From positions 1 to 64,000 of the forward strand of contig OZ223264.1 in assembly GCA_965140585.1 (NCBI GenBank): a DNA stretch of 64,000 bases. The letters are read 5' to 3'. The stretch comes from Spirochaetia bacterium (lineage in GTDB: Bacteria; Spirochaetota; Spirochaetia; UBA9216). Under the pieces are notes generated by a model. It did no database searches and was not told where the DNA came from. It worked only from the letters and a program-made list of their open reading frames with translations. Made by a program: the position numbers and the translations under genes. Shown here piece by piece: positions 12,866-63,049 of the stretch; the stretch's first letter is position 1; the number at the start of each line of letters is the position of its first letter.

Positions 12866-14089
12866 ATGAAAACTATTAATCTGACAATTCCTGATGAAGT
12901 AGCTGAAAAATATGGATTTAATCAGGACGGGCAGTACGATATAAAAGAATATGCTGACGGAATTTTTATCAGACAGTCAGCTGATATTCTTAAACGTATT
13001 TATCTTGAGGTAACTAATCAGTGCAATCTGAAATGCAAGACCTGCGTTAGAAATGTCTGGGAAGAAGAAACCGGCTTGATGTCTTACTCGAATTTTCAGA
13101 AAATAATTGAAGATACAGGCAGGATGCTTGAAGGGAATGAGCAGCCTTTTACTTTCATTTTCGGGGGATGGGGTGAGCCGCTTACTCATCCTGAAATATT
13201 CAGAATGATCCGCGAAATTAAAAAAAACGGATGGCGTGCAGAACTGATTACAAACGGAACACTGCTTAACGTTGAAACTTCCGAAAAACTGATTGATGCC
13301 GGACTGGATATTATCTGGGTTTCGCTGGATGGAGCAAAACCTGAAAGTTATAAGGATGTAAGGCTTGGTAATATGCTTCCTGTTATTCTTGATAATCTGA
13401 GCAGTCTAAGAAATGCCAAGGTTCTGCGTTTTTCAGAAAATCCTAATCTGGGCATAGCCTTTGTTGCAATGAAGAGTAATATAAATGACCTGCCGGGTAT
13501 TATTGATATTTGCCGCAGAATGAATGCTGTAAAACTTTCAGTAAGCAATGTACTTCCCTTTACAGAAGAACTGGCGGAAGAACGGCTGTATAAAATGTCT
13601 TCAGGTAACTGGTGGGGACGGGGAGACATTGAAATATCTTTTCCAAGAATTGATGTCTCAGATGAGGTTTCTGAAATTATTAAAACAACAGCAGGTGCCG
13701 GAGGTTGGTATTCAATTGCAGGCAATGAGAGGGATCAGCGGATAGGGGTCTGTCCCTTTATGAAAAAAGCAAGTCTTTCGATCCGCTGGGACGGTAAGGT
13801 AAGTCCATGCACACCGCTGTTTTACAACAGTGAATCATACCTTGATAAAACTCTTCGAAAAAGCGATGCCTGTCATTTCGGGGATATTCAATCAGAGACT
13901 CTATCCGGAATATGGATGAAGTCCGAATACCGTGAGTTCAGAAAAAGACTTCAGTTTGAGGAGTTTTCTCCGTGTACTTACTGCAATTCCTGTGAGATGG
14001 CCGAGGACAACGGTGAAGACTGTTTCGGTAACGGTCACCCCTCCTGCGGCGGCTGTCTGTGGCAGCAGGGATTTATCCAGTGCCCGTGA
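12866..14089 (+). CDS. Radical SAM/SPASM protein of the tungsten-cofactor oxidoreductase maturase type, with N-terminal AbrB-like extension
   Basis: CNLKCKTC; GGWGEPL; SPASM region CPF...GKVSPC; C-terminus CTYCNSC...DCFGNGHPSCGGCLWQQGFIQCP is characteristic of the TIGR04317-like family. Confidence 0.82.
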   Translation: MKTINLTIPDEVAEKYGFNQDGQYDIKEYADGIFIRQSADILKRIYLEVTNQCNLKCKTCVRNVWEEETGLMSYSNFQKIIEDTGRMLEGNEQPFTFIFGGWGEPLTHPEIFRMIREIKKNGWRAELITNGTLLNVETSEKLIDAGLDIIWVSLDGAKPESYKDVRLGNMLPVILDNLSSLRNAKVLRFSENPNLGIAFVAMKSNINDLPGIIDICRRMNAVKLSVSNVLPFTEELAEERLYKMSSGNWWGRGDIEISFPRIDVSDEVSEIIKTTAGAGGWYSIAGNERDQRIGVCPFMKKASLSIRWDGKVSPCTPLFYNSESYLDKTLRKSDACHFGDIQSETLSGIWMKSEYREFRKRLQFEEFSPCTYCNSCEMAEDNGEDCFGNGHPSCGGCLWQQGFIQCP

Positions 14090-42861: not shown

Positions 42862-43134
42862 ATGAATAATCAGTCAGTGAAATATGCATCGGTAATTCTT
42901 ATCTGGGCGGCAGCGCTGCTTCTGTGGATTATCAAAGGGTGGTGGTTTATAACTGCGGCTCTGTTTCTGCTGCATTTTTTTGAAACAGTGTTTACAGGAA
43001 TCAGGACAGGAAAAGAACATGGTCTGAGTCGGGGGTATTCGATTATTATGTCAATGGCCTTCGGTATTGTCTGGTGGAAACCTCTAAATGATGAGTATAA
43101 AAAGAAAAACATTCCGGAGGACTGCGAAGAGTGA
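42862..43134 (+). CDS. Small membrane protein
   Basis: Three hydrophobic segments, LHFFE and FG..WW; overlaps the AOR start. Confidence 0.7.
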   Translation: MNNQSVKYASVILIWAAALLLWIIKGWWFITAALFLLHFFETVFTGIRTGKEHGLSRGYSIIMSMAFGIVWWKPLNDEYKKKNIPEDCEE

Positions 43135-45131
43135 AAGGTTATATAGGAAAAATTCTGGTTGCTGATCTCGGATCAGGTAAATGTGAAATTGAAGCTGTTC
43201 CCGAGAAGGTATATGAAGAGGTTCTCTCGGGAGTAGGCCTTGGTGCCTGGTACCTCTGCAGGAATATTCCGGCCGGTGCAGATCCGCTTGGTCCGCTAAA
43301 TATTCTAGGATTTACATCCGGTCTTCTTACGGGAACAGGCTCTGTCATGACCGGCAGGTGGATGGCAGTCTGCAAATCACCGCTTACCGGTGGATGGGGA
43401 GATTCCAATTGCGGCGGAAATCTGGCACCGGCAATCAAGCAGTGCGGTGTTGATGCAATATTTATCAAGGGGCAGGCGGCCGAACCCGTTTACCTGTATA
43501 TGGATAACCGGGGAGCGGAGATCCGCCCGGCTGCAGACTTTTGGGGGCTTGATGCAATCGAAGCCGAAGAGCGGCTGATAAAGGAAAACTGGAAAAAGAA
43601 GAAGCCGGCTGCTGCCGTAATCGGACCATCTGCTGAAAAGCTGTCGCTGATATCCGGCATATCCAATGACCTTGGTCGGTATGCCGCGCGTTCGGGCGTC
43701 GGTGCTGTAATGGGTTCAAAGAAACTTAAGGCGGTGGTTCTTGCCGGAACCAAGCAGGTTAAGGCAGATAATCCGGAAAAGATTAAGGAACTGAGTAAGG
43801 AGTATTCCCGGAAGGTAAGAAAGATGAACGCGCCCAGCGTATTCACCGGTGCCCTGCTTCCTGTGCTTGGAAAGGTAATGGGCAGCCTGAAAAGTGTTGC
43901 GCCTCTGGATGGAATGCTAACCGCAATGCTTCTTAGAAAATGGGGTACGGTGATGAACAATACACTGGCCGTCATGAATGGTGATGCCCCGATTAAGAAC
44001 TGGTCCGGTTCGGAAAAAGATTATAATTTTAAATACTACAGACAGATCAATCCCGATAAGTTCATTGCCCGTGAGCAGACCAAATATCACTGCTATTCCT
44101 GCATAATCGGCTGCGGGGGAATGTGTTCAATAAAGGATATCAGGGACGGAAAATATTCCCATACCCATAAACCCGAGTATGAAACGGCAATGATGTTCGG
44201 CGGTCTTCTGATGAATAAGGACCGTGATGCAATCTTTTATGCAAACGAACTCTGCAACCGCTACGGTCTTGATACCATTTCAGCGGGAACTGTAATAGCA
44301 TTTGCAATTGAATGTTACGAGAACGGGATTCTCACGGATGAGGATACATACGGTCTGAAACTTAACTGGGGCAGCAGCGATGCCGTCATAAGTCTTCTTG
44401 AAAAAATTGCAAACCGCGAGCCGGGTCTTGGTGATATCCTTGCCGACGGTGTCAAAGCCGCAGCTGAAAAGATAGGTAAGGGTTCTGAAAAATATGCTGT
44501 TCATGCCGGCGGGCAGGAGCTTCCGGCACATGACCCGAAGATTGATCCGATGCTTGCCCAGACCTATGGAATAGATCCGACTCCGGGCCGGCATACTACC
44601 AGCAGCGGCTTGTACTATACTTCCTCATTTCTGTGGCAGTATGTTTCATGGCTTCCCTCATTCAGGCTGTATTCTAAAAGTAAGGAATACATCCCTTCTA
44701 TGGAAGAAACAATGAAAAATGTGGCTTATACATCGTTTAAGATGCTGATCGATGGAACCGGCAGCTGCTATTACGCTATGCTGATGGGTGTCAGGTATTT
44801 CAGAATTTTTGATTTCCTGAATGCTGCAACCGGATGGAACAAGACTCCCGATGAATATATGGAAATAGGAAAGCGGATGCAGAATCTGCGTCAGCTGTTT
44901 AATGCAATACATTCTGTGGATGTTAACAGCTTTAAGCCCCATGCAAGAGTTTACGGGGCGGAGCCTCTTGTAAGCGGACATAATAAAAATATTACGGTTG
45001 ATATTGACGGGATGATTGAACTGTATAAGGAAGCCTGGGGCTGGGATGCTGAAAGCGGATACCCCACTGAAGAAACCGTTAACAAATACGGACTTGAACA
45101 GCTGCTTGATAAGGAGGACCTGTATGCCTGA
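43131..45131 (+). CDS. aor: Aldehyde:ferredoxin oxidoreductase family (tungstopterin) enzyme
   Basis: KSPLTGGWGDSNCGG, ARSGVGAVMGSKKLKA, CYSCIIGC, PEYET, GLDTISAG and GQELPAHDP motifs. Confidence 0.92.
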   Translation: MKGYIGKILVADLGSGKCEIEAVPEKVYEEVLSGVGLGAWYLCRNIPAGADPLGPLNILGFTSGLLTGTGSVMTGRWMAVCKSPLTGGWGDSNCGGNLAPAIKQCGVDAIFIKGQAAEPVYLYMDNRGAEIRPAADFWGLDAIEAEERLIKENWKKKKPAAAVIGPSAEKLSLISGISNDLGRYAARSGVGAVMGSKKLKAVVLAGTKQVKADNPEKIKELSKEYSRKVRKMNAPSVFTGALLPVLGKVMGSLKSVAPLDGMLTAMLLRKWGTVMNNTLAVMNGDAPIKNWSGSEKDYNFKYYRQINPDKFIAREQTKYHCYSCIIGCGGMCSIKDIRDGKYSHTHKPEYETAMMFGGLLMNKDRDAIFYANELCNRYGLDTISAGTVIAFAIECYENGILTDEDTYGLKLNWGSSDAVISLLEKIANREPGLGDILADGVKAAAEKIGKGSEKYAVHAGGQELPAHDPKIDPMLAQTYGIDPTPGRHTTSSGLYYTSSFLWQYVSWLPSFRLYSKSKEYIPSMEETMKNVAYTSFKMLIDGTGSCYYAMLMGVRYFRIFDFLNAATGWNKTPDEYMEIGKRMQNLRQLFNAIHSVDVNSFKPHARVYGAEPLVSGHNKNITVDIDGMIELYKEAWGWDAESGYPTEETVNKYGLEQLLDKEDLYA

Positions 45132-45336
45132 CAAAAAAATCCCGGAAGTCGACTATAAACACTGCATGGCCTGCCGGGTCTGTATTATCGCCTGCCCATT
45201 CAGTTGCCTTGATGCGGTTAAAACCGATAATCCGGGAAAGAAGGGTTTTCCGGAACTTGTAAAAGCTGAAAGCTGTACAGGCTGCGGAATATGCGCGCAG
45301 GCCTGTCCTGTTGAAGTAATAAGGATGGTTTCCTGA
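45124..45336 (+). CDS. 2[4Fe-4S] ferredoxin
   Basis: CMACRVCIIACP and CTGCGICAQACP; RBS aggagg; ATG 45124 overlaps the end of AOR. Confidence 0.92.
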   Translation: MPDKKIPEVDYKHCMACRVCIIACPFSCLDAVKTDNPGKKGFPELVKAESCTGCGICAQACPVEVIRMVS

Positions 45337-45339
45337 GAA

Positions 45340-45573
45340 GTGAAGGTTAGAATTACTGCTCCGGCATTCTGCGACTACAGCCGGATTGATGATTCCGGCT
45401 GCATCGAACTGCCGGAAAAATCCCGGCTTAACAAGCTGTATTCAATGCTTAAAATCCCGCTTCCGGTAAGGCCTCTTTTAATAACCATGGTGAATTTCGA
45501 AAAAGCCCGTCCGACTAAAATTCTTTCCGATGGAGACGATGTCAGCATCCTCTGGTTTATGTCAGGCGGATGA
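45340..45573 (+). CDS. MoaD/ThiS family sulfur carrier
   Basis: Beta-grasp size, VN and LSDGDDV motifs, C-terminal GG. Confidence 0.85.
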   Translation: MKVRITAPAFCDYSRIDDSGCIELPEKSRLNKLYSMLKIPLPVRPLLITMVNFEKARPTKILSDGDDVSILWFMSGG

Positions 45574-45676
45574 TCGTCTCTGCATTGACTCTTTTGCGGT
45601 ATTAATTCATTCTTAAACAAGAATAAAAAGTATAAGAGGCTGAATCGGTTCAGCTTCGCGTAAAGGAGTCTCTTCA

Positions 45677-45919
45677 ATGGCAAAAATAATCGAGTTTAAA
45701 AAACCTGAGCAGGAAAAGGGTAAATCATGTTCCTGGTGCAAGAACCGGGGAACTCATCCGCTTGACCCTCCTTGTGATAGATGCAGATGGTATGATCGTG
45801 ATGAAGTCTTTGATCTTGAAGTTGCCGGTGAAGGCGTTGTTAAAGTCAGAAAAGAGGTAGACCCCGAGACCTTCGAAATACGCTTCATCCCCGCGGAAGA
45901 AACTGATATAGATATCTGA
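45677..45919 (+). CDS. Small Cys-rich hypothetical protein (CxxC-x11-CxxC)
   Basis: Strong RBS taaaggag; CSWC...CDRC. Confidence 0.65.
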   Translation: MAKIIEFKKPEQEKGKSCSWCKNRGTHPLDPPCDRCRWYDRDEVFDLEVAGEGVVKVRKEVDPETFEIRFIPAEETDIDI

Positions 45920-46011
45920 GCTTCCTGCAAAACTTTCATAGTTTTGAAATTGTCTTATCTGATCAAACTCTCCGGTTGACTGTCGGATCGTCGGACGGGT
46001 ATACTTACAGA

Positions 46012-46641
46012 ATGATAGACATTTTTCTGAAAGGCGGCGTACTGATGTGGCCGCTTCTTGTAATTTCAGTTATAGCTCTTGCTGTAATTCTTGAGCGTGA
46101 ATATTTCTTTTTTAAAAACCGGGTCAGTGAATCCCAGCTTAACTCTTTAAAGGAGCTTCTTCTTGATGGAAGGGCTGATGAGGCAGAAACACAGACCGGG
46201 CGTTCCGGCCGTGTGCTTCTTGTTTTTCTTAACTCAGTAATTTCAAACCGTAGAAATTCCGTTGAGATTGCCGAAAGGGAAATTTCACTCTCCGGAGAAA
46301 AGATGCTTTTTCAGGCTTCAAGCTTTATTCATGTGCTTGAGCTTATCGGCAGTATTTCTCCCATGATTGGACTTTCAGGTACTGTTGTGGGAATGGTCAG
46401 GGCCTTCCAGCAGATCGGTTTGAATACAGGGTCCCAGATTGACCCATCGCTTCTTGCCGACGGAATATGGGTAGCCATGATAACAACTGTGGCAGGACTA
46501 TTTGTGGCAATTCCCAGTTTCATCTTTGCCCATATAAATAACAGGCGCCTTAGAAAGCTTGAGTTCAATATGAAAATTTATGGAGAAGAGTTTCATTCGA
46601 TTTTGCGTGCAGATGAAAAAAAGGCTGTATTGAATGATTGA
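46012..46641 (+). CDS. exbB: MotA/TolQ/ExbB proton channel protein
   Basis: GGVLMWPL, SPMIGLSGTV.GM and GI..AM.TTVAGL.VAIP motifs; ATG 46012. Confidence 0.9.
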   Translation: MIDIFLKGGVLMWPLLVISVIALAVILEREYFFFKNRVSESQLNSLKELLLDGRADEAETQTGRSGRVLLVFLNSVISNRRNSVEIAEREISLSGEKMLFQASSFIHVLELIGSISPMIGLSGTVVGMVRAFQQIGLNTGSQIDPSLLADGIWVAMITTVAGLFVAIPSFIFAHINNRRLRKLEFNMKIYGEEFHSILRADEKKAVLND

Positions 46642-47050
46642 ATTCAGAGAATTTGATGAATCGTGGAAGTCCCGTACAAGGTTTGAGATGACCCCGATGA
46701 TCGATATGATCTTTCTTCTGCTGATATTTTTTCTCCTGACATCAACTCTCACCAATCCGGTCATTACTGTTGAACTTCCTGAATCTGAAATTGTCGATAC
46801 CAGAATAGAGCAGGATGTTGTGGTTACAGTTGACAGTGAAGGCAGGCTTTTTCTGGATGAGCAGGAGTACAGTAAAGCAGCGCTTGCCGCTGAAATCAAT
46901 TCAATATATCTTGGCCGTGACTCATCGGATATTTTTATCCAGGCTGATGAAAATGTTGACTTTGGAATTATTGTTGAGGTAATGGACATCTGCAGAAAGA
47001 ACGGAGCCTTCGATCTTTCTTTCATTGTAGAAGGAAAGGCTTCTCCCTGA
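46634..47050 (+). CDS. exbD: ExbD/TolR biopolymer transport protein
   Basis: MTPMIDMIFLLLIFF; IQADENV. Confidence 0.92.
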   Translation: MIEFREFDESWKSRTRFEMTPMIDMIFLLLIFFLLTSTLTNPVITVELPESEIVDTRIEQDVVVTVDSEGRLFLDEQEYSKAALAAEINSIYLGRDSSDIFIQADENVDFGIIVEVMDICRKNGAFDLSFIVEGKASP

Positions 47051-47054
47051 AGAA

Positions 47055-47780
47055 ATGAAATCTTCCAGAATTATTCTATTATTTGCTGCAGTCTCAATTG
47101 TAATACACGGACTGGTTTTTCTTGTTAAGATTAGTCCGTCGGAAAGATCTCCAGTGCCGGACTCCGGACATCTGATCCCGGTTGAACTTGCATTTGTTCC
47201 GAAGCAGGCATTGCCTGTACAGGCAGCGCCTCCGGTGACACAAGCTGAGGAACCTCCGGCTGAACCGCCGTCAGCTTCAGAGAAACCAGTGCCTAAAGAG
47301 CCGGTCCGGGAAACTCCGCAACCGGAGCCGGTTAAACAGGAGTCTCAGGAAATGGACCGGGATACGGCTCCGCATCCGGAACAGGAGACGCAGGAATCTT
47401 CCTCTCAACAGCAGGACAGTAGTGATGTTTCTCAGAATTCTGATTCCACTGAAACCCGGGACTCTGCGACTGTCTCAGTCGCTGCGCCGGTGACTCAGGC
47501 AAACCCTGTTGACGGTCTTATGCAGCGTGTTGAAATAAATAAAAGAGGCAGCTATCCTCTTCGTGCAAGGAAGCGGGGCCAGCAGGGGACTGTTATAGTC
47601 TCGCTGATTCTGGATAAGGATGGAAATATGCTCAATGTTGAGATTATCAGAAAATCCAGACACTCTGCACTTAACACTGCGGCGCTTGAGCTGGTTGAAA
47701 AGATTATGGAAACACCTTATCCGCATGGTCTAGATAAAACGGTGAATTTTGAGTTTCCTATTACATTCAGACTTGATTAG
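47055..47780 (+). CDS. tonB: TonB family energy transducer
   Basis: TM with S...H motif, Pro/Glu-rich linker, YP..ARKRGQQGTV and PITFRL. Confidence 0.88.
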   Translation: MKSSRIILLFAAVSIVIHGLVFLVKISPSERSPVPDSGHLIPVELAFVPKQALPVQAAPPVTQAEEPPAEPPSASEKPVPKEPVRETPQPEPVKQESQEMDRDTAPHPEQETQESSSQQQDSSDVSQNSDSTETRDSATVSVAAPVTQANPVDGLMQRVEINKRGSYPLRARKRGQQGTVIVSLILDKDGNMLNVEIIRKSRHSALNTAALELVEKIMETPYPHGLDKTVNFEFPITFRLD

Positions 47781-58454: not shown

Positions 58455-58483
58455 TTGACAATAGTATCACCGGAAAATATTAT
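58455..58483 (+). promoter_or_regulatory. Sigma70 promoter upstream of the Moco/Wco RNA motif
   Basis: TTGACA-N17-TATTAT. Confidence 0.75.
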
Positions 58484-58487
58484 GATT

Positions 58488-58588
58488 CATAACTCCGAAC
58501 CTTTATCTCCTAAAATCCGGAAGGATCATGGGTTGAGGTCGATGGGTTCAACGGGAAACGGTTGTGCCTTCCGTGTTTGAAAAGGAGA
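58488..58588 (+). ncRNA. Moco-class riboswitch candidate lacking P3 (Wco/Tuco variant)
   Basis: ACUCCGA..CCUAA..AUCC-GGAA-GGAU-CAUGG..GGG..CAAC-GGGAAACG-GUUG..GCCUUCCGUGUUUGAAAAGGAG follows the Moco RNA consensus; only 4 nt (CGAU) lie where P3 would be. Confidence 0.82.
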
Positions 58589-58756
58589 AAATAAAAAACT
58601 GATCATGGCTTTAATGACCTGAAAAAAGTTTCTTATTAAATTACTCGAAGAAGGATTGATTAAGTAATCAGATCCTGTTCGGGCAATTCACACCTCTTAT
58701 ACAGATTCAGGAAGACAGGACCGTACTCTCGTAAATTTGAAAAGACGGAGGCTTGA

Positions 58757-60079
58757 ATGTCTGAATATCTCGAATATCTGCCAGAATTGAAAAGCACTAC
58801 ACTCTTTCAGGGAATAGGCGACTCTGAATTAATAGCTCTTCTTGATGCAATGAGACCCGAAATTGTCTGCAGGAAGGCCGGCACAGAAGGTGTACCGCAG
58901 ATAGACTTTGATGAAGGTCTATTCTGTGTTGTGCTCAGGGGGAAGCCTCTTGACAAGCTTGCCCCCCGGCCTGATGTTTACAACATGCCTAAAATAACAG
59001 AACCGGGAATGATGATGGGAGAAATTCCCTGTCTGTCTGAAATGCTGAAAAGTCGGGCTCCAAAAATCAGATTCAGAGGCGGCGGGCATGCAGGGCCCGG
59101 ACATGATGACTTTGATCTTTATATGCTTCGAATGAGCGGAGAGATGATTACTCGCTTTCACGGCATAGAGCATAGTGGTGCACAGGGACGGATGCTGCGG
59201 AATTTTCTCGGTATTCTGGCCCAGAAGGTAACTGATGTCCGAAAAGAGAAAGCTCAGCTGAGTTATGATTATAATAAGGCGCTTTCTCCATACCGACTGA
59301 ATATTCTCTGTGCCGGGGTTTCGCTCAAGCTGGTAAAGCAAACAGCTGATATATGGAATAAAATGCATCCTGAGCTTCCGGCGGTTGTTACTACGGGCAG
59401 TTCTGTAGACATTATCCGTGACTGTATAAGCGGTTATCCCTGCGACCTTCTTGTTTCTGCAGATGATTCCATTATTGAATCGATGCTGATGCCTGATTAT
59501 GTTTCGGGTTACCGAATCTGGGGCGGGAATAAAATGGTCATCTGCGGCGAGGGAATTTCTCCTGACAACTGGATTGACAGGCTTCTGGCTTCCGGGGCTT
59601 CATTTAAGCATAAGGACCCTTACGGAGATCCCGGCGGGTACAGGGCTGTTATGGCTATGCTGCTTGCCGATAAAGTTGAACCTGGACTCTCGGGCAGGTT
59701 GATGAATCATCCCGGCCATATCGGCATGGAGAAAAATCCCGGTCCATTTGGAAATATGAAGCCTGCGGATTATTCGTTTACCTATCTTAGTGCAGCTGTT
59801 TCGATGGGAGTCGACTATACTGAACTGCCCGCAGTTATGGATCTTTCTGATCCTGATCTGGCTTCAGAGTATGCCGAAGTAAGTTTTGCTGTTGATAAAG
59901 ATAATACCGTTACAGCAACACCAATTGCCCACGCATTAGCCATTCCGAAAACTTCACTGCATCTTTCTTCCGCTGCGGAATTTGCTGAACTCTTTCTTAA
60001 TATCGATAAATCTAAACACGGTTTTCTGCTTCGTGAGGGAACAGCCGGAACCGATCCTCTGACATTAAAAAACAGATAA
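58757..60079 (+). CDS. Fusion of Crp-like cNMP/dimerisation domain and WtpA/ModA-like oxyanion-binding domain; no signal peptide, no HTH
   Basis: N-terminus LFQGI..SEL..LL and C-helix MLRNFLGILAQKV (Crp-like); C-terminus GSS..IIR..CDLLVSAD..I..MLMPDY, N.MV and DPYGDPGGYRA (WtpA-like). Confidence 0.7.
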   Translation: MSEYLEYLPELKSTTLFQGIGDSELIALLDAMRPEIVCRKAGTEGVPQIDFDEGLFCVVLRGKPLDKLAPRPDVYNMPKITEPGMMMGEIPCLSEMLKSRAPKIRFRGGGHAGPGHDDFDLYMLRMSGEMITRFHGIEHSGAQGRMLRNFLGILAQKVTDVRKEKAQLSYDYNKALSPYRLNILCAGVSLKLVKQTADIWNKMHPELPAVVTTGSSVDIIRDCISGYPCDLLVSADDSIIESMLMPDYVSGYRIWGGNKMVICGEGISPDNWIDRLLASGASFKHKDPYGDPGGYRAVMAMLLADKVEPGLSGRLMNHPGHIGMEKNPGPFGNMKPADYSFTYLSAAVSMGVDYTELPAVMDLSDPDLASEYAEVSFAVDKDNTVTATPIAHALAIPKTSLHLSSAAEFAELFLNIDKSKHGFLLREGTAGTDPLTLKNR

Positions 60080-60118
60080 TGTACTTAAAAAAAGTACTGA
60101 TTATAAAAGGAGAAACTA

Positions 60119-61210
60119 ATGAATAACTTGAAAAAAATTGTTTTAGCGATTCTTGTCGGTATATGCATTGCAGCATCTCTTCCGGCGGACGACAGAGTTG
60201 TAAACGTCACTGACATGAGCGGTGACTCGGTTACTGTGAAAGGAGAGGTTCGTAAGATAATTAATCTTTGGCCTGCCGGAACTTCTTCATTCTTTGTTAT
60301 GGGGGCCGGTGATCTGATTGTCGGGCTTGCTGTAAACAGCCCGGCTACTATGAACTCCTGGACAAGGCTCTTCTACCCTGAATGTCAGAGTATTCCGGCT
60401 TTGGGCGGTATTACACCTTCTATAGAGGAGCTGATAAAACTTGATCCGGACCTTGTCATCATTCATCCTTCAAGTGCAAAGGCTGGGTTTGCACAGCAGA
60501 TTCGAGATGTCGGTATTCCTGCAATCAATATTAATTTCAGTGATTATAAAACAATGGTTAAGGCATATTCAGTACTTGGGGAAGTTCTTGGAGGCAAATA
60601 TCAGCAGCGGTTGAGCAAATGGTGTTCTGCAGTAGAATCAAAGCTTTCAAATGTAAGATCTCTTACCGCAGGACTTACAGACTCAGAACGTCCTGTAGTT
60701 TACTATGTTGCCGGCCAGACAGATTCATTGACAAAAACAATGCGTTCAGGCAGTATAATTAATGACTGGGTTGAGTCTGCCGGAGGAGTATATGCTTTTG
60801 ACAGGATGGATGTTCCAGGTTCTGATGTTACTCCTGAGGCTGTATTCGCGCTTAATCCTGATGTTATAATTTGCGGCGGTGTATATCAGCATATAGAAAA
60901 AGAACAGATTTCTGTATCTGAAGGCTGGAATGATCTTCGGGCTGCTGTTGATAAACGTGTATATACTAACCCTTACGGCTGTTTCAACTGGGATCGCTTC
61001 GGTCTGGAAAGTCAGCTTCAGATTAACTATGCCCTCTTAAGGATTCAACCAAAAATAGCTGCTGCTAACGGTATATCTGAAGAGTCAGTAATTGAAGAAA
61101 TTATTGATTTTTACAGTACATATACAGGATTTAATCTGAGCCGTGCACAGGCCGAAAATATGTTTAATGGTTTGACCGCTGACGGGTCACCGGAAATGTC
61201 AGCAAGGTAA
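60119..61210 (+). CDS. Class III (FecB/BtuF/MolA-like) ABC substrate-binding protein
   Basis: Signal peptide; VTDMSG..V, SIEELIKLDPDLVI, NPDVII, AV..RVY..P and WDR motifs. Confidence 0.88.
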   Translation: MNNLKKIVLAILVGICIAASLPADDRVVNVTDMSGDSVTVKGEVRKIINLWPAGTSSFFVMGAGDLIVGLAVNSPATMNSWTRLFYPECQSIPALGGITPSIEELIKLDPDLVIIHPSSAKAGFAQQIRDVGIPAININFSDYKTMVKAYSVLGEVLGGKYQQRLSKWCSAVESKLSNVRSLTAGLTDSERPVVYYVAGQTDSLTKTMRSGSIINDWVESAGGVYAFDRMDVPGSDVTPEAVFALNPDVIICGGVYQHIEKEQISVSEGWNDLRAAVDKRVYTNPYGCFNWDRFGLESQLQINYALLRIQPKIAAANGISEESVIEEIIDFYSTYTGFNLSRAQAENMFNGLTADGSPEMSAR

Positions 61211-61217
61211 GACTGCT

Positions 61218-62282
61218 TTGACAGATTTAAATTCTGAAAATAAAACTGATCACTCCGCTGCGGGCAGGGTGATCAGTTTCCCTTTTTCATGGATTTTTAT
61301 ACTTTCTCTTCTTGTCCTTTTTATGATGTTTACATTTTCCCTGGCTGTCGGTCGCTACAGTATTCCGGTTGATTATACTCTGCGTATTCTTTTTTCAAAG
61401 ATAATTGATGTAAACAGGATATGGACAGATATTCAGGAGGCGGTTGTTCTTAATCTTAGACTTCCCAGAACTGTTGCCGCCGTAGTAATCGGTGCGGCTT
61501 TATCACTCTCCGGTGCAGCCTACCAGAGTATTTTTAAAAACCCCATGGTATCACCCGATCTCCTGGGAGTTTCTTCCGGTGCCTGTGTGGGAGCTGCACT
61601 TGCAATTCTGTTAAATGCCGGGAATGCAGTTATTCAGCTCAGTGCCTTTACAGGGGGCTTAATTGCTGTAGGAATTACAGTTTCTATTCCAGCACTTATC
61701 CGGAGCAATTCAACCACGGTTCTAGTTCTCTCCGGTATTGTTATCAGCAGTCTAATGTCTTCAATTATGAGTATAATAAAATTTGTAGCTGATACAGATA
61801 CCCAGCTTGCAGAGATAACCTACTGGCTGATGGGCTCTTTTGCTTCTATAAAATTTAAACAGATGCTGCCTGTTCTTCCAACTATTATTATCCCTGCATC
61901 GGTCGTGCTGCTGATGCGGTACAGGCTGAATATTCTTTCTCTAGGTGATAAGGAAGCGAAATCTCTTGGTGTAAATCTTGGTATTACAAGGGGAATCTTC
62001 ATCCTGTGTTCAACTCTTTTAACGGCCGGCTGCGTTTGCTTATCGGGGACTATTGGCTGGGTCGGTCTCGTGATACCTCACACAGCAAGAATGATCATCG
62101 GATCGGATAACAAGAAAATGCTGCCTGTAGCAATGACCTGCGGAGCTGTTTTCATGCTGGTAATTGATATTCTCTGCAGAACAATTACTTCGGCCGAATT
62201 AAGGCTTGGAATTTTAACAGGAATAATCGGTGCTCCGTTTTTTATCTTTATTTTGTTTAAGCAGAAGGACCAGGTAAAATGA
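61218..62282 (+). CDS. FecCD/BtuC/MolB-type ABC permease
   Basis: LRLPR, FKNPMVSPDLLGVSSGA, WLMGS, IGWVGLVIPH and IIGAPFF motifs. Confidence 0.93.
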   Translation: MTDLNSENKTDHSAAGRVISFPFSWIFILSLLVLFMMFTFSLAVGRYSIPVDYTLRILFSKIIDVNRIWTDIQEAVVLNLRLPRTVAAVVIGAALSLSGAAYQSIFKNPMVSPDLLGVSSGACVGAALAILLNAGNAVIQLSAFTGGLIAVGITVSIPALIRSNSTTVLVLSGIVISSLMSSIMSIIKFVADTDTQLAEITYWLMGSFASIKFKQMLPVLPTIIIPASVVLLMRYRLNILSLGDKEAKSLGVNLGITRGIFILCSTLLTAGCVCLSGTIGWVGLVIPHTARMIIGSDNKKMLPVAMTCGAVFMLVIDILCRTITSAELRLGILTGIIGAPFFIFILFKQKDQVK

Positions 62283-63049
62283 TTCTTGAAGTAGATGATC
62301 TAAGTTACCGCTATCATAACAGCAGTAATGTTTTTAATGGTGTAAGTTTCTCACTTGATAAGGGCGAGGTCCTTTCGATCCTCGGAGTGAATGGTGCAGG
62401 GAAATCAACCCTGCTGAATTGTATAGGAAACCTTTTTAGACCTGCAACGGGAGAAATCAGGTTAAACGGAAAACTTATGTCTTCGATGCATACAAGAGAT
62501 ATAGCCCGTGTTATTGGTTATGTTCCGCAGAGCCATACTGCGGTATATGGATACAGCGTTAGAGAGTACGTTGTTATGGGAAGGACTCCGTTCATAGGTG
62601 CTTTTGCTGTTCCGGGAAGAGATGATTACAGGATTGCGGATGAAGCGCTTGAAAAAATGGAAATTAAACATTTGGGAAAAAAACTGTATACAGAAATATC
62701 CGGAGGTGAAAGGCAGCAGGTTATGATTGCAAAAATTTTCGCTCAGCAGCCTCAGCTTATTCTTCTTGATGAGCCTACAGCCCACCTGGATTACGGAAAC
62801 CAGCACCGTGTTGTCGAAATGATCCGTAATCTTGCCGGAGAAGGATATGCGATGATAATGACCACTCACAATCCGGAGCATGCGTTTATTCTTGATGGGA
62901 AGGTAGCTATTCTGAACAGGTCCGGTGTTCTGTGTGTTGGTGATTCCGGAGAGACCCTTACCACCGAAATTCTTTCAAGCCTTTATTCGCTGCCGATAAA
63001 AACCAAATATGATGAAGATGCAAAAAGAAATATCTGTGTAGTCTGCTAA
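62279..63049 (+). CDS. ABC transporter ATP-binding protein (FecE/MolC-type)
   Basis: GVNGAGKST, ISGGERQ, LLDEPT and TTH motifs. Confidence 0.95.
   Translation: MILEVDDLSYRYHNSSNVFNGVSFSLDKGEVLSILGVNGAGKSTLLNCIGNLFRPATGEIRLNGKLMSSMHTRDIARVIGYVPQSHTAVYGYSVREYVVMGRTPFIGAFAVPGRDDYRIADEALEKMEIKHLGKKLYTEISGGERQQVMIAKIFAQQPQLILLDEPTAHLDYGNQHRVVEMIRNLAGEGYAMIMTTHNPEHAFILDGKVAILNRSGVLCVGDSGETLTTEILSSLYSLPIKTKYDEDAKRNICVVC

Follow-up and report, generated by a model that had tools for sequence, protein, structure and literature searches.

Background

Enzymes that use tungsten (W) or molybdenum (Mo) are central to anaerobic metabolism, and the recognised means of taking up these metals are the Mod, Tup and Wtp systems, MOT1-type carriers and the little-understood MolBC-A. 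We analysed a stretch of 64,000 nucleotides (nt) from a Spirochaetia bacterium (contig OZ223264.1, positions 1 to 64,000; hereafter the window), in which a riboswitch for the molybdenum or tungsten cofactor (Moco/Tuco) precedes four genes, one for a cytoplasmic fusion protein with a WtpA-like domain and three for a type II ATP-binding cassette (ABC) importer. The molybdate/tungstate importer of Haemophilus influenzae, MolBC-A (HI1470/HI1471/HI1472), has the same three-part type II layout, an ATPase likewise devoid of a TOBE domain, and the permease and ATPase nearest to those of the cassette; MolBC is described, in the accessible part of its literature, as a small-substrate importer. However, the binding protein of the cassette is only distantly MolA-like, and the cassette differs further by its riboswitch, by the cytoplasmic fusion protein with its WtpA-like domain and by its occurrence in anaerobes rich in aldehyde ferredoxin oxidoreductases (AOR). 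To our knowledge, neither a riboswitch nor a WtpA-like fusion part belongs to MolBC-A.

The ligand of the Moco/Tuco riboswitch is the cofactor itself, and aptamers without the P3 hairpin were proposed to sense the tungsten cofactor (Wco) in particular (Regulski et al. 2008, PMC2408646, as far as its accessible text goes). The same aptamer precedes the cassette, with the same OFF-switch layout in orthologous leaders. As targets, that text names modABC, tup/wtp and moa genes together with enzymes that use the cofactor; it does not mention a FecCD-type importer accompanied by a cytoplasmic WtpA-like protein.

With regard to the fusion protein, the archaeal ModA/WtpA class is distinguished by octahedral coordination through two acidic residues (PMC11350598, accessible part). 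The window protein has the same fold as members of that class (AF0094, MJ1186, PF0080) and keeps the Asp, Glu, Tyr and Ser residues aligned to their ligand positions, but it stays in the cytoplasm, is joined to a sensor domain, lacks about 30 inter-lobe residues and has new, near-invariant His and Cys residues; in addition, unlike archaeal WtpA, it is encoded beside FecCD-type genes and not beside the type I permease WtpBC. The periplasmic binding protein (PBP) fold is likewise reused in the cytoplasm, in a Mo/W context, by TaoR (helix-turn-helix (HTH) plus PBP-like domains; described in the Tub paper), and it is also intracellular in MoeA-PBP fusions, the genome under study having a MoeA-family protein that matches the long PRK14498 model. 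Unlike TaoR and the MoeA-PBP fusions, the window protein has a Crp/Fnr-type sensor as its partner domain, with no DNA-binding or enzymatic domain, and its gene is tied to an importer rather than to MoeA or a regulon. Finally, the sensor domains of Crp/Fnr regulators (HcpR, CooA, DNR) show the same N-terminal fold and the long C-helix through which members of that family dimerise, whereas the window protein has a WtpA-like domain in place of the HTH, goes undetected by the Pfam cNMP_binding model and has a loop motif of its own, EPGMMMGEIPCLSE.

Results

The riboswitch-led cassette and its conservation

There is good support for a role of the cassette in supplying Mo/W under repression by the cofactor. 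A preliminary description of this locus had proposed one co-oriented, riboswitch-led unit tied to Mo/W cofactor metabolism, and this is confirmed here by the score of the riboswitch and by the conservation of the cassette across phyla. A covariance model search (cmscan) placed RF01055, the single Rfam family found in the whole window, at 58481-58603 (+) with 70.6 bits (gathering score, 36; E 5e-15). The alignment spans the entire model (1-135) with the positions of the P3 hairpin deleted, as corresponds to the P3-less type. Downstream, the four co-oriented genes occupy 58757-63049 (+).

Relatives of the fusion protein were found at 16 genome loci in Spirochaetia, Dehalococcoidales, Atribacterota, Clostridia and Syntrophomonadaceae, and the identity of the cassette across four phyla (Spirochaetia, Dehalococcoidales, Atribacterota and Clostridia) was 62-79%. 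Fifteen loci had a full-length fusion gene, and in every one of them the gene for the binding protein came after it; those for the permease and the ATPase came next wherever the contig extended (identities of 56-97%). An RF01055 match was located directly 5' of the fusion gene in 14 of the 16 loci: eight scored over the gathering value and the remaining six, at the same distance to the gene, between 28 and 35 bits, which is below the threshold. Flanking genes differed from locus to locus, L015 apart. At this last locus, in an Atribacterota metagenome-assembled genome (MAG), a gene of the MFS_MOT1 family of molybdate transporters (L015:11540-12658) comes immediately after the cassette and in the same orientation. 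An open reading frame (ORF) after a short WtpA-like gene at L027 was considered as a binding protein and, although secreted-looking, was not counted, as it had no Pfam match.

Among the 201 genomes of the window's own class (Spirochaetia) that were searched, four had the fusion gene, all of them in one family. Since these versions are about 65% identical to those in other phyla, the distribution points to horizontal spread of the cassette. The 17 genomes with the cassette, most of them incomplete MAGs, had AOR-family genes in 16 cases, TupA matches in 13 and moaA over the cut-off in 14.

The P3 type was assigned in nine leaders, the six sub-threshold aptamers being left out. The aptamers of the window, L012, L018, L023 and L027 were P3-less (those of L012, L018 and L023 in the same position as in the window), and those of L013, L016, L019 and L025 carried P3. 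Because the same cassette stands under both kinds, the aptamer type cannot mark it as tungsten-specific. The tungsten specificity first proposed is thus not supported, and the genome also encodes enzymes of the dimethyl sulfoxide reductase (DMSOR) and xanthine dehydrogenase (XDH) families.

The leaders suggest how the switch might work. Outside the spirochaetes, cassette leaders contain a clear terminator (ACGCC..GGCGU followed by a U-run), the 5' arm and loop of which (CCUUUCC) are complementary to the 3' P1 strand of the aptamer (GGAAAGG); they display the classic antiterminator layout of an OFF switch. In L014, L015, L017 and L019 an extra hairpin, with a U-run behind it in L014 and L015, stands between the aptamer and this terminator, and these leaders may have two terminator-like elements in tandem. 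The spirochaete leaders, including that of the window, are 141-192 nt long and have no canonical terminator. The 153-nt leader of the window (58604-58756, +) has a Shine-Dalgarno sequence (GGAGG, 58747-58751) that is paired in the minimum-energy fold with a possible anti-Shine-Dalgarno (CCUCU, 58693-58697), and no switching scheme could be derived from this fold. A sigma-70-like promoter (TTGACA-17 nt-TATTAT, 58455-58483, +; a consensus match only, at 11 of 12 positions) would place the transcription start just ahead of the P1 core of the aptamer. As the promoter scan found six such sites in this region, fewer than the 9.8 expected on the basis of shuffled sequences, this candidate is not significant by itself and rests on its position.

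The importer

The second gene (60119-61210, +) codes for an extracytoplasmic substrate-binding lipoprotein of the Peripla_BP_2 family (cluster A; Pfam PF01497), whose family consensus includes a signal peptide and a GC lipobox. It is followed by a MolB-like type II permease of the FecCD family (61218-62282, +; PF01032, 287 bits) and by a MolC-like ABC ATPase of 256 amino acids (aa) (62279-63049, +), the gene of which overlaps that of the permease by 4 nt. In the ATPase, Pfam recognised only ABC/AAA-type domains and no C-terminal regulatory domain of the TOBE type. The nearest solved relative of the permease was HI1471 (MolB), with 225.6 bits over the full length, followed by HmuU (173.8), BhuU (168), FhuB (162) and BtuC (154), and HI1470 (MolC), with 157 bits, was the only solved chain at E<=1e-35 for the ATPase. 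The membrane engine is therefore MolBC-like, and to this extent the likeness to MolABC claimed in the preliminary description holds. For the binding protein the likeness was less clear: the profile of the latter matched best 4ovk (7e-29) and then 4pag, 4hn9 and 4mo9, all with generic names only, while MolA (3psa) came in rank 10 (1.5e-10 over 74 aa) and BtuF reached about 3e-4. One homologue of the binding protein, P0186, is named from a Christensenella isolate. Every NCBIfam match to BtuF/BtuC, FecC/D, FhuB and IsdE was below its curated cut-off (BtuC, 215.5 versus 334; BtuF, 32 versus 234).

The fusion protein

The first gene (58757-60079, +) encodes a protein of 440 aa that Pfam, an AlphaFold (AF2) model and structure searches resolve into a Crp/Fnr-type sensor fold (residues 1 to about 135), a long helix (137-179) and a WtpA-like domain (180-428). 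Its N-terminus (MxxYxEYLPELKSTTLFQ) is kept among 49 aligned homologues and has no hydrophobic leader. As no signal peptide was found, the protein should be cytoplasmic and not the binding protein of the transporter, which disposes of the idea that it served as a second one. The description as a Crp-WtpA fusion stands at the level of the fold for both domains, but the protein is not a WtpA equivalog and no HTH DNA-binding domain was found in it, residues 180-428 being WtpA-like.

Residues 181-411 matched SBP_bac_11 in Pfam, and WtpA was the best NCBIfam match of the whole protein. In the AF2 model (mean predicted local distance difference test (pLDDT) 91), residues 178-428 superposed on 3cfz_A, the M. 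jannaschii ModA/WtpA with tungstate, with Z 28.8 and a root-mean-square deviation (rmsd) of 2.2 over 243 aa at 27% identity, the next structural entry having Z 20.5. Consistent with this, the top ten Foldseek chains were archaeal ModA/WtpA, a VIA search with the full-length model gave only matches to the C-terminal domain among those listed, and the profile of the family matched AF0094 at 8e-48. At the positions aligned to the ligand residues of AF0094, the 49 homologues had an invariant Asp (D291, aligned to D125 of the crystal construct), Asp or Glu at position 325 (D in 24 and E in 21; aligned to E190), an invariant Tyr (Y343; aligned to Y208) and an invariant Ser (S216; aligned to the second Gly-Ser), and the first Ala-Gly-Ser of the archaeal proteins was replaced by Ala-Gly-Val. 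Since Asp, Glu, Ser and Tyr are kept, the domain would, by its residues, be able to bind an oxyanion, and we regard the protein as a predicted cytoplasmic tungstate/molybdate binder of a previously undescribed family.

The N-terminal domain was harder to assign. Pfam gave no match for the first 178 aa, nor cNMP_binding (the cyclic nucleotide monophosphate, cNMP, model) in any of 16 family members at E<=10, and a profile search of the PDB with this domain gave 0 matches. The ESM Atlas proposed cNMP_binding (score 0.90), which we took as a lead only. When the domain was folded alone, all 50 VIA entries among the matches listed were proteins of the cNMP-binding fold, the top one being the sensor domain of the Crp/Fnr regulator HcpR (a moderate Z of 7.9, rmsd 3.8 over 126 aa, with a query model of pLDDT 64). 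In that model, residues 63-117 were below 50; in the full-length model the blocks over residues 51-90 scored 86-90, which we read as packing of the conserved loop on the C-terminal domain. A single bridging match (2.9e-6) connected the profile of the domain to P0276, a protein with bona fide cNMP_binding and HTH_Crp_2 domains. The most conserved stretch, with the invariant motif EPGMMMGEIPCLSE, is at the usual ligand-site loop of Crp/Fnr-type domains and, in the AF2 model, the helix 137-179 that joins the two domains sits at the position of the Crp/Fnr dimerisation helix.

Few proteins have the N-terminal domain, the family of which comprises 47 representative clusters out of 1.84 billion proteins. 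The domain is found after the WtpA-like domain, in swapped order, in P0112, P0114, P0242, P0243 and P0256, and also stand-alone in proteins of about 176-190 aa; in P0260 and P0262 (707-748 aa) it stands at the C-terminus of proteins that start with NTP_transf_5, an uncharacterised nucleotidyltransferase. Conversely, a stand-alone WtpA-like gene without a signal sequence is placed beside moaC, moaA, a gene for a 146-aa unknown protein and moeA at L032:610-4268, where no riboswitch match was obtained. Its product shares 79% identity with the WtpA-like half of P0112, one of the proteins with the two domains in swapped order. A predicted complex between the fusion protein and two copies of the ATPase scored 0.00, which speaks neither for nor against contact.

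Other molybdenum and tungsten genes of the genome and the window

The genome has a total of six RF01055 matches, five of them without P3. The sole P3-bearing one (C6:700013-700190, with a 45-nt insert in P3) heads the L010 locus, which contains tupABC, two moeA, moaA, moaC, a MOSC-domain gene and moaB, the second moeA being the one that matches the long PRK14498 model. A modA (152 bits) was also present and no true WtpA was found in this genome. These results run counter to two proposals made before. That of a route standing apart from Mod and Tup fails because tupABC, under its own riboswitch, and modA are both there, TupA matches occurring in 13 of the 17 cassette genomes; and that of pterin import meets moaA and moaC and indeed a full pterin pathway in this genome, with moaA over the cut-off in 14 of the 17. 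The cassette thus comes on top of other systems in tungsten-heavy, pterin-making organisms, being neither a substitute for Tup/Mod nor an obligatory salvage route.

A second P3-less riboswitch (C3:56352-56486) precedes another type II importer (L009:261-3998), made up of a Peripla_BP_2 protein 23% identical to that of the cassette, a permease also nearest to HI1471 (244.8 bits), an ATPase and, in the accessory position, a 254-aa DUF364/DUF4213 protein annotated as putative heavy-metal chelation. The 254-aa protein was considered as a WtpA-like paralogue and rejected. A third (C9:526535-526657) is followed at L007:248-5134 by genes for an SBP_bac_8 protein (496 aa), a 465-aa Oxidored_molyb protein and a 669-aa permease. 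The latter is a fused double type I permease, and Oxidored_molyb is a molybdopterin-binding domain within an odd transporter. Another (C7:210541-210666, -) precedes a gene for a NAD-dependent aldehyde dehydrogenase (L008:8503-9951, -; PRK13473, 639 bits) that may be a tungsten-independent stand-in for AOR under cofactor scarcity, and one P3-less riboswitch precedes ferredoxin and AOR genes.

It was also claimed that the importer serves a tungsten AOR and that several tungsten genes are in the window. At the genome level the former is supported by eight AFOR_N matches (besides three of the DMSOR and three of the XDH family), but the AOR gene of the window (43131-45131) is 13 kb from the cassette. 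It opens a stretch (43131-47780) that continues with an ORF for a small 2x[4Fe-4S]-type ferredoxin (within 45016-45336), an ORF of 77 aa and then exbB, exbD and tonB. As to the other genes, the 77-aa ORF (45340-45573), formerly called MoaD-like, ends in GG and has no NCBIfam family match, and the best NCBIfam match of the radical SAM/SPASM gene (12866-14089), which has no AOR gene of the window near it, was TIGR04317 (tungsten cofactor oxidoreductase maturase) at 286 bits, under the cut-off of 380. Being 13-45 kb away, none of the three (AOR, radical SAM and 77-aa ORF) is operon-linked to the cassette.

Discussion

We believe that a cofactor-repressed, MolBC-type importer for tungstate, molybdate or close W/Mo species, with an intracellular oxyanion-binding partner, is on balance the probable explanation for these results. 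The riboswitch, the families and folds of the proteins, their conserved residues, and the gene linkage and co-occurrences are observed; we infer what the binding protein carries, in which direction the cofactor regulates the operon here and what the fusion protein does. With Moco or Wco in ample supply, the aptamer would bind the cofactor and the operon would be off, by transcription termination in most lineages and probably at the level of translation in this spirochaete. When the cofactor is scarce, the type II ABC importer would be made and its lipoprotein partner would take up tungstate, molybdate or a closely related W/Mo species. Inside the cell the fusion protein, probably a dimer, would bind the oxyanion through its WtpA-like domain. 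It could then act as an acceptor or buffer handing the metal to MoeA, a role made plausible by the gene neighbourhood at L032 and by the known cytoplasmic PBP-like Mo/W domains (TaoR). Alternatively, it could be the oxyanion sensor that the TOBE-less ATPase lacks, Mod- and Tup-type ATPases carrying such sensors as TOBE domains. In either role, the Crp/Fnr-type domain would read some second signal.

Several observations weigh against this explanation. Since tupABC and modA are already in the genome, a third oxyanion importer needs a reason. The binding protein, judged by its profile matches, is a clade of its own and not specifically MolA-like, and the many invariant Trp and Tyr residues of its family would also suit a bulkier ligand. 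The WtpA-like domain misses the WtpA equivalog cut-offs by far (101.3 bits versus 242.75 for TIGR03730 and 99.2 versus 355 for NF003196), has an inter-lobe segment reduced from about 46 archaeal residues to about 15, H318 and H321 among them, and displays extra, family-specific and near-invariant residues (C229, H285, H318, H321 and H392). Lastly, an intrinsic terminator was searched for and not found in the cassette's own leader in the window, and L020 and L026 gave no riboswitch match at E<=1.

Some of these features would be accounted for if the substrate were a complexed or modified form of W or Mo, for instance a chelate with a metallophore or a thio-oxyanion of sulfidic habitats, from which the fusion protein would capture the tungstate or molybdate released inside the cell. 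We hold this alternative, the main one, to be possible, if fairly unlikely. It would fit the coverage of free oxyanions by tupABC and modA in this genome and the occurrence of TupA in 13 of the 17 cassette genomes, the aromatic-rich cluster A binding protein that is not close to MolA, the putative heavy-metal chelation protein that accompanies the second riboswitch-controlled importer, and the additional Cys, His and Met residues, near-invariant, of the fusion protein. Moreover, type II importers for heme have cytoplasmic heme-binding proteins encoded alongside. However, the permease and the ATPase are nearest to MolBC, in its accessible description an importer of small substrates, and neither a chelator biosynthesis gene nor an outer-membrane receptor gene is present in the cassette.

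In a bolder account, which we consider rather improbable, the fusion protein would represent a novel type of Mo/W-handling protein of the cytoplasm, with one domain for the oxyanion and the other for a second ligand, possibly a pterin phosphate (cyclic pyranopterin monophosphate (cPMP) or molybdopterin (MPT)). It would thereby either gate the TOBE-less importer or present the metal so that it can be inserted into the pterin. W/Mo species beyond the reach of Tup and Mod, such as a chelate or the thio-oxyanions of sulfidic habitats, would enter through the importer, and the whole would be a fourth acquisition route that has an intracellular partner of its own.

That the importer salvages the pterin as such (Moco/Wco, MPT or cPMP), with the Crp/Fnr-type domain binding the pterin phosphate and the WtpA-like domain supplying the metal, is very unlikely. 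Type II importers typically carry large cofactors, cPMP has a cyclic phosphate and the cNMP-type fold binds cyclic phosphates; the binding protein has its invariant aromatic residues. The riboswitch ligand is the cofactor itself (PMC2408646, accessible text). Nevertheless, with moaA in 14 of the 17 genomes and with moaA, moaC, moaB and two moeA here, pterin salvage would be unneeded; in addition, the permease and ATPase are closest to the small-substrate MolBC, and there is no sequence sign of a pterin site. Least credible of all is a conventional importer of iron-siderophores, heme or B12, as automatic annotation would have it, with the riboswitch and the WtpA-like gene as incidental neighbours, which is suggested by the name given by the sources to homologues of the binding protein when they are named ("iron complex transport system substrate-binding protein") and by weak NCBIfam matches to BtuC, FecC and FhuB, but is contradicted by the failure of all such matches to reach the curated cut-offs, by the higher scores of MolBC over HmuU, FhuB and BtuC, and by the riboswitch (14/16) and the fusion gene (15/15 loci) travelling with the importer across phyla.

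Returning to the MolBC-type importer with an intracellular oxyanion-binding partner, its components are of known kinds: a Moco riboswitch, a MolBC-like importer and a WtpA fold. In the literature searched, subscription journals and supplements lying outside that search, we found no account of their combination, of its conservation across phyla, or of a family joining the sensor fold to a WtpA-like domain. The accessible part of the Moco riboswitch literature yielded no description of the cassette either, and no papers on PDB entries 4OVK, 4PAG, 9HRJ, 9HT5 and 9HRP were found in the literature searched.

Conclusions

The cassette ties MolBC-type importers to the cofactor pool by regulation, represents a system that appears to be spreading horizontally among AOR-rich anaerobes, and adds an undescribed cytoplasmic family predicted to bind oxyanions. 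If the explanation favoured here is true, many of the "iron complex" transporters of anaerobe genomes would need re-annotation, and the fusion protein would provide a handle on how imported W and Mo are received and partitioned inside the cell.

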